Shown: positions 4,106 to 25,513 of the stretch, piece by piece
Layout of the letters: each line of letters begins with the position of its first letter
Numbering within the stretch: position 1 is the stretch's first letter
IMG/VR virus record: IMGVR_UViG_3300031890_000042
Span: 1-27,688 of that record
DNA length: 27,688 nucleotides
Reading direction: 5' to 3' (one strand)
Source: a virus
Taxonomy: Duplodnaviria; Caudoviricetes
The notes under the pieces: generated by a model
The model's input: the letters and a program-made list of their open reading frames with translations, nothing else
Told to the model about the DNA's origin: nothing
Database searches by the model: none
Position numbers and translations under genes: made by a program

Positions 4106-6433
4106 ATGGCTCTCACCGGCTCGACCATCAACGTCACCACTGCACCAGGCGCGCCGCCACGGGCCGCTGATCCGGCCATTCAGGAGACGTTGGGCGGCAG
4201 CGAGGACGTCACCCGCGAGGACGCACGGCCATCAAAGCTGCCGAAGGACAAGCTCTTCGATTGCTTAAAAGGATGGTTCCGCTCCGATAGCACGCACATG
4301 ACCGCCTGGCTGGTCGAAGCAAAGGAGATGTACGATTTCCGTGCCGGCGACCAGTGGGCACCCGAAGACCGCCAGATCCTGAATTCGCAAAATAGACCGG
4401 AAATCGTTTTCAACCGTGTGTTGACGATGTTGAAAGCGGTCGCCGGCATGGAGATCAATGGCCGGCACGAGGTCAAATATATCCCGCGGCACAACGAAGA
4501 CACCTCAATCAATGAGCTCCTGAGCGGCGCCGGCAAATGGCTCACGGACGAGTGCGACGCCGAAGACGAAGAGAGCATGAGCTTCGACGATGCCAATACC
4601 TGCGGGCTCGGCTTTACCGAACACCGGCTCGATTACGAGCTCGACAAGCGCGGGACATATATCGAGGAGCGCGTCGATCCCCTCGAGATGCGGGTTGACC
4701 GGAATGCCAAGCGCAAGAACCTGATCGATGCGCGGCGAATGGCGCGGGTGCGCAAGATCCCGCTCGCCGACGCGATGCAGCTGTTCCGCGGCAAGAGCCG
4801 GACTGCGTTAGATGCCACTTGGGCAATTGGCACCGAGATGGAGGCCACCACCAAGACCTTGGAGGAGAAACGCAAGCGCGAGGAAAACACGACTGATACT
4901 ACGTACGACGACCTTTATGAAATCACACTTGTAAATTTCCAATGGTGGGAGCGGGAGACTTATTGGCTGCTCGCTGATCCAGTCACCAATCAAACAGTGG
5001 AGCTATCGACCGAGGAATATCACCTGTTCCACGTGATGATGCAGCGGCTCGGAGCGCTCGGCTCGCCGATACAGCACATGGCGGTCGAGATGACGCGGCG
5101 AGTCTACAAGGAAGCCTACTTGGGCGGCGAGGTGTTGTCGATCGGCGATGCGCCATTTGGCTGCTTCAAGTGGACCGCAATCACCGGCGAATACAATCGT
5201 ACGAGAGGACAGTGGTTTGGATTAGTCAAGATTATGAAAGACCCACAGATGTGGGCGAACAAATGGTTGTCCCAGAGTTTGCACATTCTCAATACGACCG
5301 CCAAAGGCGGCGTGATGGCCGAACAGGATGCATTCGAGGATGTAAGAGAGGCCGAAGATAAATGGGCGCGCCCCGATGCAATCATTTGGATGAAGCGCGG
5401 CGCGTTGGGCGGATCAAGTCCGAAAGTCATTCCGCGGCCAGGCGGGACATTTCCGCAAGGCCACATGGATCTGATGAACTTCGCGATCTCGGCAATCAGA
5501 GACGTGACCGGCATCAACCTCGAGCTCCTCGGTCTCAAAGATCAAAATCAACCAGGCATACTCGAGGCGCAGCGCAAGCAAGCCGGCATGACAGTGCTGG
5601 CAACCGTATTTGATAGCTTGCGACGGTTTAGAAAGATTGGCGGCCGGATCAGATTGATCGTGATCCAAAAATTCCTCTCTGACGGCCGGCTTGTCCGCAT
5701 CGTCGGACCGCAGGGCGCGCAAGCGGTGCCGCTGATGCGGGACAAATGCATCGGTGACTACGACGTCGTCATCGATGATGCGCCCACCTCGCCAAATCAG
5801 AAGGAACAGAATTGGGCGATTATCTCGGCGCTGCTGCCTGCATTCCGCGATCAGCTGGTGCAAAACCCAGACTTGTTGATGGCGGTCCTCAAGTATTCGC
5901 CGCTGCCGGCAGGGCTGATCGACGAGATGGAGAAAACCATGCAGATGCTGGCGCCGCAGACGCAGGGCCAGCAAGGGCTGCAGCAGGCCGCGGCGACCGC
6001 CAAGATAAACAAGGACCAAGCACAAGCCGAACTGTTCCTTAGCCAGGCGCGCAAGCAAGAGTCGACCGCCATGTACGATATTGCAATCGCCATGGCACAG
6101 TTCACCAAGGCTCACATGGACAACGATTACACGGCGGCCAAGGCGGCACATGAGCGCGTCAAAGCGATGGCCACGGCCATGCAGCCGCTGCCGGCCAACG
6201 CCAATCCGCTGGCGGACCAGGCGCACGAGGCTGCCCTGCAGGCCTCGGATCAGGCGCACGAGGCCACCATGCAGGTCGGCCAGCACCGCATGGATATGGT
6301 GCAGCAGCTGCTCAAGCAGCAGCACGAGCGGACGATGCAGGAACTCCAAAACCTACAGGCAGGGACAGCAGGCGGTGCGCAGGCCTCGCCGGCCGGCGGC
6401 TCGCCAGGCGTGGGAGCAACGGAGGCCGCATGA
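4106..6433 (+). CDS. Portal protein, P22 gp1-like
   Basis: 775 aa; motifs YDFRAGDQW, RPEIVFNRV, GLVKIMKDPQMWANK, IRDVTGIN, YDVVIDDAPTSPNQKEQ; Gln/Ala-rich helical C-terminal barrel-like region. Confidence 0.9.
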   Translation: MALTGSTINVTTAPGAPPRAADPAIQETLGGSEDVTREDARPSKLPKDKLFDCLKGWFRSDSTHMTAWLVEAKEMYDFRAGDQWAPEDRQILNSQNRPEIVFNRVLTMLKAVAGMEINGRHEVKYIPRHNEDTSINELLSGAGKWLTDECDAEDEESMSFDDANTCGLGFTEHRLDYELDKRGTYIEERVDPLEMRVDRNAKRKNLIDARRMARVRKIPLADAMQLFRGKSRTALDATWAIGTEMEATTKTLEEKRKREENTTDTTYDDLYEITLVNFQWWERETYWLLADPVTNQTVELSTEEYHLFHVMMQRLGALGSPIQHMAVEMTRRVYKEAYLGGEVLSIGDAPFGCFKWTAITGEYNRTRGQWFGLVKIMKDPQMWANKWLSQSLHILNTTAKGGVMAEQDAFEDVREAEDKWARPDAIIWMKRGALGGSSPKVIPRPGGTFPQGHMDLMNFAISAIRDVTGINLELLGLKDQNQPGILEAQRKQAGMTVLATVFDSLRRFRKIGGRIRLIVIQKFLSDGRLVRIVGPQGAQAVPLMRDKCIGDYDVVIDDAPTSPNQKEQNWAIISALLPAFRDQLVQNPDLLMAVLKYSPLPAGLIDEMEKTMQMLAPQTQGQQGLQQAAATAKINKDQAQAELFLSQARKQESTAMYDIAIAMAQFTKAHMDNDYTAAKAAHERVKAMATAMQPLPANANPLADQAHEAALQASDQAHEATMQVGQHRMDMVQQLLKQQHERTMQELQNLQAGTAGGAQASPAGGSPGVGATEAA

Positions 6434-6678: not shown

Positions 6679-7028
6679 GCAAGAGAATGGACTTTCCATC
6701 ATCCGGCAATCTGCTCGAGGCAGACCTGCCGCCGATGCAGAACGCAGCGGTCAATTCGATTTACGGCAAGATATCGGCGGTCGGCGCCAAGTACGGTTTT
6801 GAGGTGAAGTCGATCGAAATGTTCGACGGCAACCGCAGACTTGAGGTTGGCGTGGAACCGCTGACGACGGTCATCCACAAGGAGCATGGGCCGCTTTTCA
6901 AGAGCTGCTCCGTGAGCACCAAGGTTGAAGGGCGCACGATCGCCGAGATTGGTGCCGAACTCGCTCATGGTCTCGAAGACTGGGCAATGGCCAAGCTTCG
7001 CGTATGCGACAAAAGCCAGACGAATTAG
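6675..7028 (+). CDS. Hypothetical protein
   Basis: ATG 6675 overlaps the previous stop and is preceded by GAGG; 117 aa. Confidence 0.65.
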   Translation: MSKRMDFPSSGNLLEADLPPMQNAAVNSIYGKISAVGAKYGFEVKSIEMFDGNRRLEVGVEPLTTVIHKEHGPLFKSCSVSTKVEGRTIAEIGAELAHGLEDWAMAKLRVCDKSQTN

Positions 7029-7288
7029 GCCTGTGTCACTCCGATGGCTGCGGAGAGCCCGCCGAGTGGTCGGTGAAGCTTGTCCTGCGCGGCTCGGCGA
7101 TCAAAGCCAGCACGACATTGAAGGTCTGCTCGAGGCATCAGCAGAAAGCTGTCGCGTTCGTCCTTGGCGACGATAATCGCAAGGCGCTCGTCAATCACTT
7201 GGTCGATGACAACTGGGCGGACCACCAGACCGCGACGCGCCTCGTGCACAATGGTGCGCATATCGAGTTTGAGCCTCTCCCCAAGTGA
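7004..7288 (+). CDS. Small hypothetical protein, possible Zn-binding (CxxxxC...CxxH)
   Basis: CHSDGC...VCSRH motif; GTGA overlap with the next gene. Confidence 0.6.
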   Translation: MRQKPDELGLCHSDGCGEPAEWSVKLVLRGSAIKASTTLKVCSRHQQKAVAFVLGDDNRKALVNHLVDDNWADHQTATRLVHNGAHIEFEPLPK

Positions 7289-7608: not shown

Positions 7609-7632
7609 GCGTTGCGTAAAAGGACGAGTGTC

Positions 7633-8754
7633 ATGGCTGACAATCAGGAGCTCCATATCGACGACGGAATGACGCCTGCCGAGCGAAGCTATTTCCAGAG
7701 CGGCGGAGACGTGAGCGACCAGCTGTCGCAAGAGAACCGTGATCAGCCGGCACCGGCTGAGCCACCAGCTGAAGGCACGCCGCATGAGATGCCGAGCTAT
7801 GGCGACGAGGTGGTGGCGGGCGAGCCGCATCCGCGGCGTATTGATTTCCAAAAGTATCAGGCCGAGCAAAGCGCGCGCATGGAGGCCGAGCGGCAGCTTC
7901 ATGAAATGCGTGTCGCCGGCGCCCGCGTCGAGGAGCGCCTCAATATTTTGCAGCAGGCCATCGCTGAGCCTGAAAGCGCTCCTGCAGCACCGACGCCTCG
8001 GCGCGAACGGCCGGATCCCCAGCAGGATATTTTTGGCTACGCCGCCTGGCTCGAGGATGGGTACAACGAACAGCAGGCCCAGCTCGCTGAAATCAATCGG
8101 CAAATCGCCGAATACAGAGACAACATTTCAACCGGCCAGGCCGAGTGGGAGCAGCGGACCGCGTATCTCAATACGCTCAACAACCAGGCCGGCCGCGATC
8201 CGAACTTCCTGCCTGCCTATTCGTATCTGATGCTCAACCGCGCAGCCGAGCTGATGGCGAACAGCTATCCAGGCGCCACCCGCGACCAATTGCTGCAGGC
8301 CGCGCAGAGGGATCTTCCGGTCGATGTGCAGAACATCATCCAGCAGGAAGAGCGTGACCTTTATCGCAATGCCTTCGAGGCAAACCGCAATCCTGCCGAA
8401 GACATCTATCGCCTCGCGCGGGTGCGCGGGTTCCAGCCCCAGCCGCAACAACAGCAACCTGCCGCGCAGCCACAGCGCCAGCAGCAGCCGGCGAGGCCTG
8501 GTACGCCGCTGAGCGGGACACCGGCACCCGCTGTACCCCGTCCTGGCAGCCAGAGCGCCACCGATGTCATCAACCAAATCCGCAATGGACAGGTTGCGGC
8601 TCGATCGCTCTCGCAGGTGTCCGGCAATGCTGCGCCTGGCGGCCTCACCGCAGAGATGCTGGCCAATATGTCGGACGACGAGTTCGCGGCTGCATACGCC
8701 GAGCTCATGTCGAAAGGGAACAAGGCTCAGGTCAAGCAACTGTTCGGGAATTGA
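7633..8754 (+). CDS. Capsid scaffolding protein
   Basis: Lies between portal and capsid genes; acidic N-terminus, coiled-coil middle, C-terminal 'LTAEMLANMSDDEFAA' helix typical of podovirus scaffolds; AAGGA upstream of ATG 7633. Confidence 0.8.
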   Translation: MADNQELHIDDGMTPAERSYFQSGGDVSDQLSQENRDQPAPAEPPAEGTPHEMPSYGDEVVAGEPHPRRIDFQKYQAEQSARMEAERQLHEMRVAGARVEERLNILQQAIAEPESAPAAPTPRRERPDPQQDIFGYAAWLEDGYNEQQAQLAEINRQIAEYRDNISTGQAEWEQRTAYLNTLNNQAGRDPNFLPAYSYLMLNRAAELMANSYPGATRDQLLQAAQRDLPVDVQNIIQQEERDLYRNAFEANRNPAEDIYRLARVRGFQPQPQQQQPAAQPQRQQQPARPGTPLSGTPAPAVPRPGSQSATDVINQIRNGQVAARSLSQVSGNAAPGGLTAEMLANMSDDEFAAAYAELMSKGNKAQVKQLFGN

Positions 8755-8779
8755 CAAGAATAGAACGGTGTTCTAAAAC
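8751..8779 (+). promoter_or_regulatory. Sigma70-like promoter upstream of the capsid leader, with a palindrome in the spacer
   Basis: TTGACA (8751-8756), 17-bp spacer, TAAAAC (8774-8779); inverted repeat TAGAAC-ggt-GTTCTA at 8761-8775. Confidence 0.6.
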
Positions 8780-8785
8780 CGAGTT

Positions 8786-9105
8786 TGCGATTGCAGTTTA
8801 TCGCGGCAGTGTCGCTGAGGGCATCTACAAAGCTCCGGACCAGAAGTTGGATCACTGCAGTCGGCGTTGCCGTACTTCGCGCGGCTAGTTGCGATTGGTC
8901 GGACGTGGCGGCTCGGAAACTCGCCACCCTGTGAACCGCAGGGGCCTGCTGAAGAAGCAGGTCGCAATGGCCGGTCGGGGCCACCATCGGGCAATCGGTG
9001 GCACGCCGCGCGAACGGGCTTTTTCGCGCACTCACCCATTCGATCAACTAGGGCGTTGCAGCCGCAAGGTTGCGCGCGCCCTCAGTCATATGGGGATGCG
9101 CCCAC
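8786..9105 (+). ncRNA. Putative structured RNA / long 5' leader of the major capsid gene
   Basis: Only long non-coding gap in the window; nested helices, two GCAA tetraloop hairpins, and a 10-bp long-range pairing 8876-8885/9005-9014. Confidence 0.55.
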
Positions 9106-10209
9106 ATGGCAATGACCAACTTCGGGACCAATGATCCGCTTGCGGTCAAACTTTGGTCCAAGAGCTTGGATGTCGAAGCTCTCAAATATACCGACATTTT
9201 TCCGTTAATCGGCGACGACGCCAACGCAATTCTGCATCGTAAAACAGAGAGTTCGAAAGGCGCTGGCGACAAAGTCACCTACGGGCTGCGCCTTCAATTA
9301 ACTGGTGCTGGTTTCACGGAAAATCAGTTAGCTGAAGGCAATGGCGAAAGCCTCACGATCTACTCCGACGCCGTTGTCATCAACGAGCTCGGACATGTTG
9401 TTGGTGTAAAATCAACCAATACAATCGACGCTCAGCGCGTGCCGTTCGATCTCCGCGAGGAGGCTCGCGATGGGCTTGCTGATTGGTACGCGAAGCGCTT
9501 TTCTCAGGCGGCGTTCAATCAGTTTTGTGGGTTCACCCCTCAAACAGATATTCGCTTCACCGGCTTGCAGGCGGTGCCGGCGACGACGCGCATTGTCAGA
9601 CAATCAAGTCGGACTGACGATGCAGCCCTGACCTCGGCGGACGTTTTCTCCCTGCAATTGCTCGATAAATTGAAAGAGCAAGCAATCACGGCGACGCCGA
9701 AAATTCGTCCAGTTCGGATTACTTCAAAGCCTGGACCAGGTGGTCGGCGCGACTACAACGCAACGTTAACCGACAAATACGTCGTCTATCTCCATCCTTT
9801 CCAAGTCACTGATCTGCGCACATCAACAAGCACTGGTCAGTGGTTGGATATTTCCAAAGCAGCGATGACGGGCGGCGAAATTACCAACAACCCGATATAT
9901 ACGGGCGCATTGGGAGAATACAACTCAGTCATCATCCGGCAGGCCTACGACCTACCAAATGGCGTCTCCAACGCCGGCGCGGTCGTGGCCAACACATTCC
10001 GCGCCGTGCTGCTCGGCGGCCAGGCCGGAATGATGGCGTTCGGGCAACGCGACGCTCCAGGCAAATACAGATGGAACGAGGAGCTCTTCGATCACAAGAG
10101 GCGCCTCGAGGTCAGCGCCTGGACCATCCATGGGCTTAAACGAACCCAGTACAACGCGATCGACTACGGCACGGTTGTTTGCTCGACCTACGCCGCGGCG
10201 CATACGTGA
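9106..10209 (+). CDS. Major capsid protein, N4-gp56 / DUF4043 family (HK97 fold)
   Basis: MAMTNFGTNDPLAVKLWS, KGAGDKVTYGLRLQLTG, EGNGESL, QRVPFDLREEARDGLADW, YVVYLHPFQVTDLR, NPIYTGALGEYN, RAVLLGGQAG, WNEELFD. Confidence 0.92.
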   Translation: MAMTNFGTNDPLAVKLWSKSLDVEALKYTDIFPLIGDDANAILHRKTESSKGAGDKVTYGLRLQLTGAGFTENQLAEGNGESLTIYSDAVVINELGHVVGVKSTNTIDAQRVPFDLREEARDGLADWYAKRFSQAAFNQFCGFTPQTDIRFTGLQAVPATTRIVRQSSRTDDAALTSADVFSLQLLDKLKEQAITATPKIRPVRITSKPGPGGRRDYNATLTDKYVVYLHPFQVTDLRTSTSTGQWLDISKAAMTGGEITNNPIYTGALGEYNSVIIRQAYDLPNGVSNAGAVVANTFRAVLLGGQAGMMAFGQRDAPGKYRWNEELFDHKRRLEVSAWTIHGLKRTQYNAIDYGTVVCSTYAAAHT

Positions 10210-24977: not shown

Positions 24978-25513
24978 TGGCGAAGGTTACCGTAGCCCCA
25001 AAGCTTGAGCGGGTTCTAGCATTACTCAGATATTCTGAGGAGACTGGAGACCTACGTTGGACAGGTTTTGGGCAACAGGGCAGAGGCACACACAAACGGT
25101 CAGGCCGCGCTGGTCATGTTCACGCGCCGACGAAGGCAAAGAATAGGCCATACGTTCGGGTGACAATCGATGGCGTGCGCTACATGGCGCATACGCTAAT
25201 CTGGTACATGCAAACTGGAGAATGGTTGTGGTGCGAAATAGATCATTGCGACGGCAATGGTCTCAACAACAGATGGAACAACTTAAGACGCTGTACGCCA
25301 TCGCTGAATAATGGCAATCAGCATTTCCGCAGCGACAATACTTCTGGCGCAAAGGGTGTCTGTTACAAAGGCGATGCGTATAGATCACGTCCATGGGTGG
25401 CTGTTTGCGAGGGCCGCCATATTGGTTATCTCGCCACCGTCGAAGAAGCCGGTGCAGCATATGATCGCGCTGCTAAAGAAGCATTTGGCGACTTCGCTTT
25501 GACGAATAGCTAA
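24977..25513 (+). CDS. HNH homing endonuclease with C-terminal AP2-like domain
   Basis: Start 24977 (TGATG); YMAHTLIW, EIDHCDGNGLNNRWNNLR, NTSGAKGV, EEAGAAYDRAAKEAFGDFA. Confidence 0.9.
   Translation: MAKVTVAPKLERVLALLRYSEETGDLRWTGFGQQGRGTHKRSGRAGHVHAPTKAKNRPYVRVTIDGVRYMAHTLIWYMQTGEWLWCEIDHCDGNGLNNRWNNLRRCTPSLNNGNQHFRSDNTSGAKGVCYKGDAYRSRPWVAVCEGRHIGYLATVEEAGAAYDRAAKEAFGDFALTNS

Follow-up and report, generated by a model that had tools for sequence, protein, structure and literature searches.

A covarying array of predicted mini-pseudoknots in the leader of a phage major capsid gene

Structured leaders close to the start codon have been described in several phage mRNAs. The gene 32 leader of phages T4, T2 and RB69 contains, in the account given by PMC3014915, an H-type pseudoknot a few tens of nucleotides before the start codon, followed by a G-poor, unstructured A+U-rich spacer, and this pseudoknot has been linked to protein binding and mRNA stability. 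The same account describes hairpins that hide the Shine-Dalgarno (SD) sequence of the late genes e and I-TevI of T4, from which escape is provided by a late promoter within the hairpin. The scaffolding protein of P22 has been implicated in translational autoregulation. Bcep22-like phages, which share the capsid family studied here (about 29-31% identity), carry a promoter-like site and an RNA hairpin in the same slot (PMC9144972), and that paper, where it deals with phage CsrA, treats it as a moron gene. Fremin et al. (2023) tabulated DNAVirus_3698, DNAVirus_865 and DNAVirus_5613 as uncharacterised candidate structured RNAs before capsid_maj_N4 (37 and 4 cases) or capsid_maj_Podo (52 cases); DNAVirus_3698 is 85 nt long, and 175 of 180 are aquatic (PMC10690425).

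The leader analyzed here lies in a 27.7-kb phage contig (27,688 nucleotides, hereafter the window), where the flagged stretch takes up the 351 nt that separate a putative scaffold gene from the capsid gene. Comparison with related loci indicates that it is a real, covarying and apparently uncatalogued leader RNA. In its presumed mode of action it comes closest to the T4 gene 32 leader and shares with it the pseudoknot before the start codon and, in distant relatives, the G-poor spacer, yet it fails the defining features of that family. The pseudoknots are tandem, about 25 nt each, built on a CG/CG core and placed before a capsid gene instead of an ssDNA-binding protein gene; they have no Rfam match, and the spacer is C/A-rich or folded over the SD sequence, not unstructured and A+U-rich. 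Unlike in genes e and I-TevI, the pseudoknots abut the SD hairpin, and the promoter-like site precedes the leader as a whole. The Bcep22-like phages differ in having no pseudoknot array (0-1 descriptor matches per leader in seven phages). The VIPR RNAs, as described in bioRxiv 2026.10.15.759431, were considered and are unrelated to the leader.

The sequence is present in soil metagenome DNA runs, and no RNA run is among the 24 runs listed with it. Contigs from four other DNA runs cover the region with zero letter differences within the overlap. Among cultured phages, the capsid is closest to those of Rhizobium phage RHph_Y1_10 (53% identity), Mae-JY35 (43%) and Paracoccus phage KLEP18-1 (41%), and the host is likely an alphaproteobacterium. 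A prophage search in one bacterial order matched 4 of 401 genomes. The leader precedes many kb of virion genes. The putative scaffolding protein encoded upstream matched neither Pfam nor PHROG; a homologue lies upstream of the capsid gene in 113 of 141 loci, its C-terminal motif is conserved, and its nearest named Atlas cluster is Phage-scaffold (0.92), the family being found on only 13% of cluster members. No small RNA-binding gene was conserved within about 2.5 kb of the leader among the neighbor ORF families of the array loci. The features of the window are as follows.

4106-6433: P22-like portal gene.
7612..8754, + strand: gene for a putative scaffolding protein of 380 aa, lying between the portal and capsid genes; its product is a candidate to bind the leader.
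8751..8779, + strand: predicted sigma70-type promoter, with − 35 TTGACA (8751-8756), a 17-nt spacer and − 10 TAAAAC (8774-8779); start predicted near 8786.
8787..8860, + strand: 5′ domain with a predicted stem, 8791-8797/8854-8860, in the minimum free energy (MFE) fold; it differs between relatives.
8869..8894, + strand: module 1, predicted H-type pseudoknot matching the descriptor; stem S1 8869-8872/8882-8885, stem S2 8877-8881/8890-8894.
8900..8927, + strand: module 2, predicted mini-pseudoknot; S1 8900-8902/8913-8915, S2 8905-8910/8922-8927.
8928..8961, + strand: two inserted hairpins, 8928-8942 and 8945-8961, with pair probability 1.00.
8976..9002, + strand: module 3, predicted mini-pseudoknot; S1 8976-8978/8987-8989, S2 8980-8985/8997-9002.
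9004..9029, + strand: module 4, the last and degenerate; CG/CG core 9004-9005/9015-9016, S2 9008-9013/9024-9029 overlapping the anti-SD strand.
9026..9101, + strand: long irregular hairpin with base 9026-9039/9090-9101 and inner arm 9050-9082, predicted to sequester the SD sequence (about 9092-9098; probability 0.87).
9106..10209, + strand: major capsid protein gene, N4-gp56 / Phage_capsid_3 (DUF4043), 367 aa (PF13252, E 1.3e-86; phrog_334; TIGR04387 above cut-off).

Two further open reading frames of the window were recorded: a 94-aa frame at 7004-7288, whose Cys/His spacing is suggestive of a zinc finger and which has no family match, and a frame ending at 25513, whose C-terminal part resembles, by inspection, the HNH-type proteins inserted at the capsid starts of relatives.

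The promoter pattern was found in 36 of 132 leaders and in none of 132 capsid coding controls. A stricter generic scan of 8600-9300, which needs T at − 7, gave no promoter, and the call rests on the looser pattern. A generic terminator scan of the same interval found no terminator ahead of the capsid start. An inverted repeat (8762-8776; 6-bp arms, 3-nt center) overlaps the promoter spacer and − 10 element and is a possible operator; longer inverted repeats, likewise possible operators, span the promoters of L031 and L059. A conserved translated ORF in the leader was considered and rejected. The overlapping frames of 81-106 aa have no counterpart among the 22 largest neighbor ORF families, and leader lengths vary freely.

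The original prediction, made from the window alone, described one multi-branched RNA with an outer helix (A, 8845-8853/9042-9049), a 10-bp long-range helix (B, 8876-8885/9005-9014) and a helix closing a three-hairpin junction (C, 8889-8894/8962-8967). All quoted strands were located in the window and all are complementary. The stretch folds more stably than expected by chance as + strand RNA (MFE − 151.6 versus − 132.8 ± 5.7 for shuffles, z − 3.32, 0 of 100 shuffles as low), and the proposed strand preference held, with a z of only − 0.46 for the fold of the − strand. The single nested architecture was not supported by comparison. Helices A and C had a probability of 0.00 in the nested ensemble, and imposing A costs 13.5 kcal/mol. 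Helix B is part of the MFE fold with a probability of 0.96, but inspection of L002, L003 and L081, the closest homologues (85-86% capsid identity), shows none of A, B and C to be kept. What these homologues do keep, through compensatory change and again as judged by inspection, is the local pairings in which those strands take part. Helices B and C reuse strands from modules 1 and 4, and the conserved unit is a repeated mini-pseudoknot.

The smaller elements were retained in whole or in part. Both inserted hairpins form in the nested ensemble, and hairpin 9050-9082 is in the MFE fold. Hairpin 8905-8927 and the first GCAA hairpin (8984-9001) are reassigned as S2 of module 2 and S2 of module 3, respectively. 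Hairpins with GNRA-like or boxB-like pentaloops were considered as the units and rejected, as their loops proved to pair with the 5′ flank. The pseudoknot pairings, the SD helix and the promoter-like site had been missed.

One large nested RNA, possibly a stand-alone RNA acting in assembly or packaging, was an alternative put forward at the outset, and in a weaker form helix B would be an off-fold alternative in one lineage. We regard this explanation as improbable. Helix B comprises 10 perfect pairs and would free the entire anti-SD strand, and nested folding prefers it over the local stems, with modules 1 and 4 broken by it, by about 11 kcal/mol, a value in which pseudoknot energy is uncounted (ViennaRNA does not score pseudoknots). 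Because the nested model prefers B and module 4 is degenerate, B could be a real alternative fold in the lineage of the window. Long-range helices of at least 10 bp arise in 11 of 300 dinucleotide shuffles and in 8 of 136 other 320-nt leaders. Besides the loss of A, B and C in the close homologues, leader length and content vary widely. A stand-alone RNA is unlikely because no terminator precedes the capsid gene, the spacing between the last module and the start codon is narrow, and the 3′ end pairs with the SD sequence in the clade of the window. Stand-alone phage RNAs of the pRNA, GOLLD or ROOL type are marked by a discrete transcript that has its own 3′ end and a conserved global fold; for the leader, neither a terminator nor a conserved long-range fold was found.

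We collected capsid relatives (319 sequences, 297 with a usable capsid start), and 141 loci were left after removing 90%-identical leaders. Ten loci with an HNH insertion or remnant were left out of the per-leader counts of units, spacing, GC competition and promoter–SD-helix association and out of the last-module tree. The unit reads, in order, pyrimidines, CG-N, 0-3 nt, a 4-7 bp stem strand, N′-CG, a short A-rich loop and the partner strand. It is predicted to be an H-type pseudoknot of about 25 nt (CG-N...N′-CG with an A-rich loop), a class assigned from its interleaved covarying stems. With a descriptor that does not require the N-N′ pair, 257 units were found in 119 of the 141 leaders. 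N-N′, the third pair of S1, was Watson-Crick in 65% of these units and occurred in all four forms, compared with 14-35% at six off-register controls (G 181 versus 14-35). With a looser descriptor, N-N′ was Watson-Crick in 57% of matches in leaders, against 29% in shuffled sequence and 18-37% in controls drawn from coding regions and the reverse strand.

The third pair also covaried in alignments. In a gapless alignment of 36 units it was formed in 28, with 12 double changes, a result reached by 0 of 500 shuffles. Among last modules it was Watson-Crick in 66 of 80, and on the capsid tree 25 of 35 tip-disjoint pairs of last modules, which are not strictly independent, were compensatory. It differed between copies of one leader in 38 of 56 multi-unit leaders. 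S2 was evaluated on units chosen by S1 and motif only; at least 4 bp formed in 81 of 95 units, compared with a mean of 30.7 (maximum 43) when partners were swapped. The covariation anticipated in homologues was therefore found, in both stems of the module. It is also compatible with S1 and S2 forming alternately. S1 is just 3-4 bp, two of its pairs being invariant. A sequence-only RNA model was built as well, reached 0.5 bits per position and was not used.

In the window, the close homologues show the same behavior. By inspection, both stems of module 1 are kept in L002, L003 and L081 with changed S2 letters. The third S1 pair of module 2 is G-U in the window, G-C in L002 and A-U in L081 and L003. 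Both inserted hairpins are found in L002, the second with a wholly changed stem (by inspection). Module 4, the positional homologue of the conserved last module, was missed by the strict descriptor; it has a C.A third pair and a U-rich loop, the third S1 pair and the A-rich loop being lost.

At least one module was detected in 108 of 131 leaders, at least two in 55 and none in 23; module-bearing leaders had 1-4 detected copies. Unit density at − 150 to − 50 was 0.48-0.50 per locus per 50 nt, compared with 0.00-0.18 elsewhere within 1 kb, and the peak 50-150 nt before the capsid start is about ten times background. Thus, comparative analysis shows a repeated module with covariation of both stems, enriched 50-150 nt before the capsid start. 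The distance from the last loop CG to the ATG was 35-59 nt in 41 of 54 distant leaders. In a strict cluster scan of both strands of the window, the leader was the only cluster of two units. The same scan found the leader cluster in Mae-JY35 and not in RHph_Y1_10 or KLEP18-1, and one cluster outside the leader in each of these phages; both the sensitivity and the specificity of the descriptor are therefore incomplete. The AT-rich locus L331 (45% capsid identity) lacks the pseudoknot array and carries a terminator-like hairpin ahead of the capsid gene instead.

The original prediction did not recognize the RNA as a known family, and Rfam 15 gave no match in the window at E up to 1. In 12 related loci, two sub-threshold Rfam matches were obtained, neither informative. 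The preQ1-I, guanidine-III and SAM-II riboswitches share the H-type topology, a similar size range, an A-rich loop across S1 and a position near the SD sequence. Tandem aptamers sensing a small molecule or ion, the last copy controlling the SD sequence, would accordingly resemble the array in its invariant CG/CG core, A-rich loop and topology, and the last module abuts the anti-SD strand. Nucleotides of a ligand pocket are not evident, though: the only invariant positions in the unit alignment are two CG dinucleotides, both required by the search, few unpaired positions are conserved and loop 1 is not. The copies are in tandem and the regulated gene encodes a capsid protein, not a metabolic one, and we consider this reading highly improbable. 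Type III antitoxin RNAs (ToxI-like) also comprise tandem pseudoknots behind a promoter, and they differ in that the units here are not direct repeats, no terminator is present, the capsid gene comes next and Rfam gives no match.

We then compared the 3′ part of the leader with the SD sequence. In the clade with at least 58% capsid identity, a GCACCC-type strand is complementary to a GGGUGC-type SD sequence, and in 17 of 25 leaders this strand starts 10-11 nt past the last loop CG. The six core anti-SD/SD pairs are formed in 37-41 of 42 aligned leaders. Their covariation was not above that of shuffles (the score was reached by 38 of 500), and swapped SD partners paired equally well; the helix is thus supported by conservation and not by covariation, and both strands are possibly conserved for other reasons. 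By pattern, a helix of the GGGUGC type is absent from 77 of 131 leaders. The mean unpaired probability at − 14 to − 5 was 0.24 in SD-type leaders and 0.36-0.38 in others. In distant leaders the spacer is mostly open and C/A-rich (C 446, A 372, T 211, G 159).

The promoter-like site was present in 30 of 48 leaders with a pattern-defined SD helix and in 5 of 75 others. Those five (the window, L004, L036, L280 and L087, the last two distant) also show an SD-pairing helix, which is consequently seen in all 35 promoter-bearing leaders of this comparison. Sequence comparison thus shows that anti-SD/SD complementarity is conserved in the clade of the window and that the promoter-like site co-occurs with the SD helix. 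Most of this link comes from a single clade; KLEP18-1 and L280 may be independent cases.

In nine loci (L021, L073, L175, L189, L012, L176, L186, L191 and L217) an HNH-type endonuclease gene lies between the leader and the capsid gene, and L019 has a remnant. In four loci, the HNH gene begins 1-9 nt after the GGGTGC SD sequence and thereby occupies the regulated start, the capsid ATG being 2-15 nt past the HNH stop. In RHph_Y1_10 the HNH gene lies upstream of the array instead.

Cis-regulation of capsid synthesis, one of the roles originally suggested, is the most likely reading. Feedback by scaffold or coat, the example named with it, is a plausible candidate mechanism. From DNA-level data we infer, tentatively and with somewhat less than even confidence, a translational gate that is off by default and that a factor bound to the pseudoknots, likely the scaffolding protein, would open. 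A capsid transcript would start near 8786 from the promoter-like site (8751-8779), the modules would fold into pseudoknots during transcription, and the SD helix would hold initiation low. A ligand on the modules would stabilize the last one, whose S2 would take the first GC of the anti-SD strand; this could loosen the base of the helix and keep a 30S subunit beside the start site. The ligand may be free scaffold, matching coat output to scaffold supply, or alternatively host S1 or 30S. In distant relatives without the promoter and with an open SD sequence, the array would serve mainly as an enhancer or binding platform.

We favor this gate because the position of the array follows the start codon, a host-type promoter accompanies the hidden SD sequence and the last module overlaps the anti-SD strand. 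Scaffold is the favored ligand because its gene is the only upstream neighbor conserved in most loci and because of the P22 precedent. In 20 of 26 modules picked automatically, some of them wrongly, the last S2 opens with a GC that could pair competitively with the first two bases of the anti-SD strand. The competition between the last S2 and the anti-SD helix involves just 2-4 base pairs, and the two folds of the last domain of the window are of nearly equal energy (− 52.4 and − 52.2 kcal/mol), with the SD sequence partly paired in both. Counting against the gate, four loci have an HNH gene interposed between the element and the capsid gene, no module was detected in 23 of 131 leaders, and the fourth module of the window is degenerate. 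A more specific version, a device widespread among phages in which the tandem mini-pseudoknots are repeated sites for free scaffold and the assembly chaperone turns on translation of its coat protein by prying the SD helix open, appears doubtful at present.

The strongest competing explanation is that the modules protect the message, a possibility that we take seriously while judging it less likely than the gate. Here the tandem pseudoknots would be coaxial obstacles to RNase E scanning or to a 5′ exonuclease, with the SD hairpin secondary, and the capsid message would outlive the upstream scaffold and portal RNA and yield a large excess of coat protein. According to PMC9943677, H-type pseudoknots hinder the scanning of RNase E to a degree proportional to their coaxial length, whereas stem-loops do not, and tandem copies could be additive. 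The T4 gene 32 mRNA, which exceeds every other T4 mRNA in stability, is cleaved at − 71, directly upstream of its pseudoknot, as reported in PMC3014915; by inspection, several distant arrays start shortly past the scaffold stop codon, as after a processing cut. The free variation of module copy number and stem sequence also fits. However, an 11-bp pseudoknot was merely a modest obstacle in the data of PMC9943677, these modules have about 8-11 coaxial pairs, and protection has no need of the narrow start-codon spacing or of the link between promoter and SD helix. Protection and the gate are not mutually exclusive.

An antiterminator acting on nascent RNA like HK022 put, or a nut/boxB-like protein site, could modify RNA polymerase for the downstream virion operon. 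In the near clade the array does come directly after the promoter-like site, with many kb of virion genes downstream, and one hairpin of the window has a loop that we take to be boxB-like. This loop is missing from L002, the array keeps its position relative to the start codon, and it occurs also in leaders without a detected promoter; we give this explanation hardly any weight.

In seven phages of the sister family (L319-L322 and L324-L326; PBC5, Bcep22, POI1126, Itty13, Mwe-JY25, GP4 and SopranoGao), a promoter-like site and a small hairpin starting with GCGCA lie about 100 nt before the capsid gene. The hairpin loop contains GGA in Bcep22 and GP4, where a CsrA-like gene is annotated just upstream. 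This loop resembles a CsrA site, and phage CsrA may regulate capsid translation in the sister family. No CsrA-like family was found among the conserved neighbors of array-bearing loci. A CsrA-like protein in the same slot seems to point to capsid translation as a recurrent control point.

A literature search that covered the candidates of Fremin et al. (2023) by their table rows found no description of the leader; an earlier computational listing of the leader motif among those candidates is possible.

Outside P22 and T4, there is little understanding of the balance that tailed phages strike between coat and scaffold, or of the way in which a capsid gene that has its own host-type promoter is silenced until needed. 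The leader described here offers a small, repeated RNA module that comparison strongly supports. It occurs in uncultured soil phages and also in cultured phages of Rhizobium and Paracoccus, and can therefore be studied at the bench. At about 25 nt and with a stem of 3-4 bp, the predicted pseudoknot approaches the minimum size of the fold and is of structural interest. If the array does bind scaffold, it would constitute an activating, stoichiometry-sensing link of capsid assembly to gene expression, and would allow a host-type promoter to be kept harmless in the prophage.
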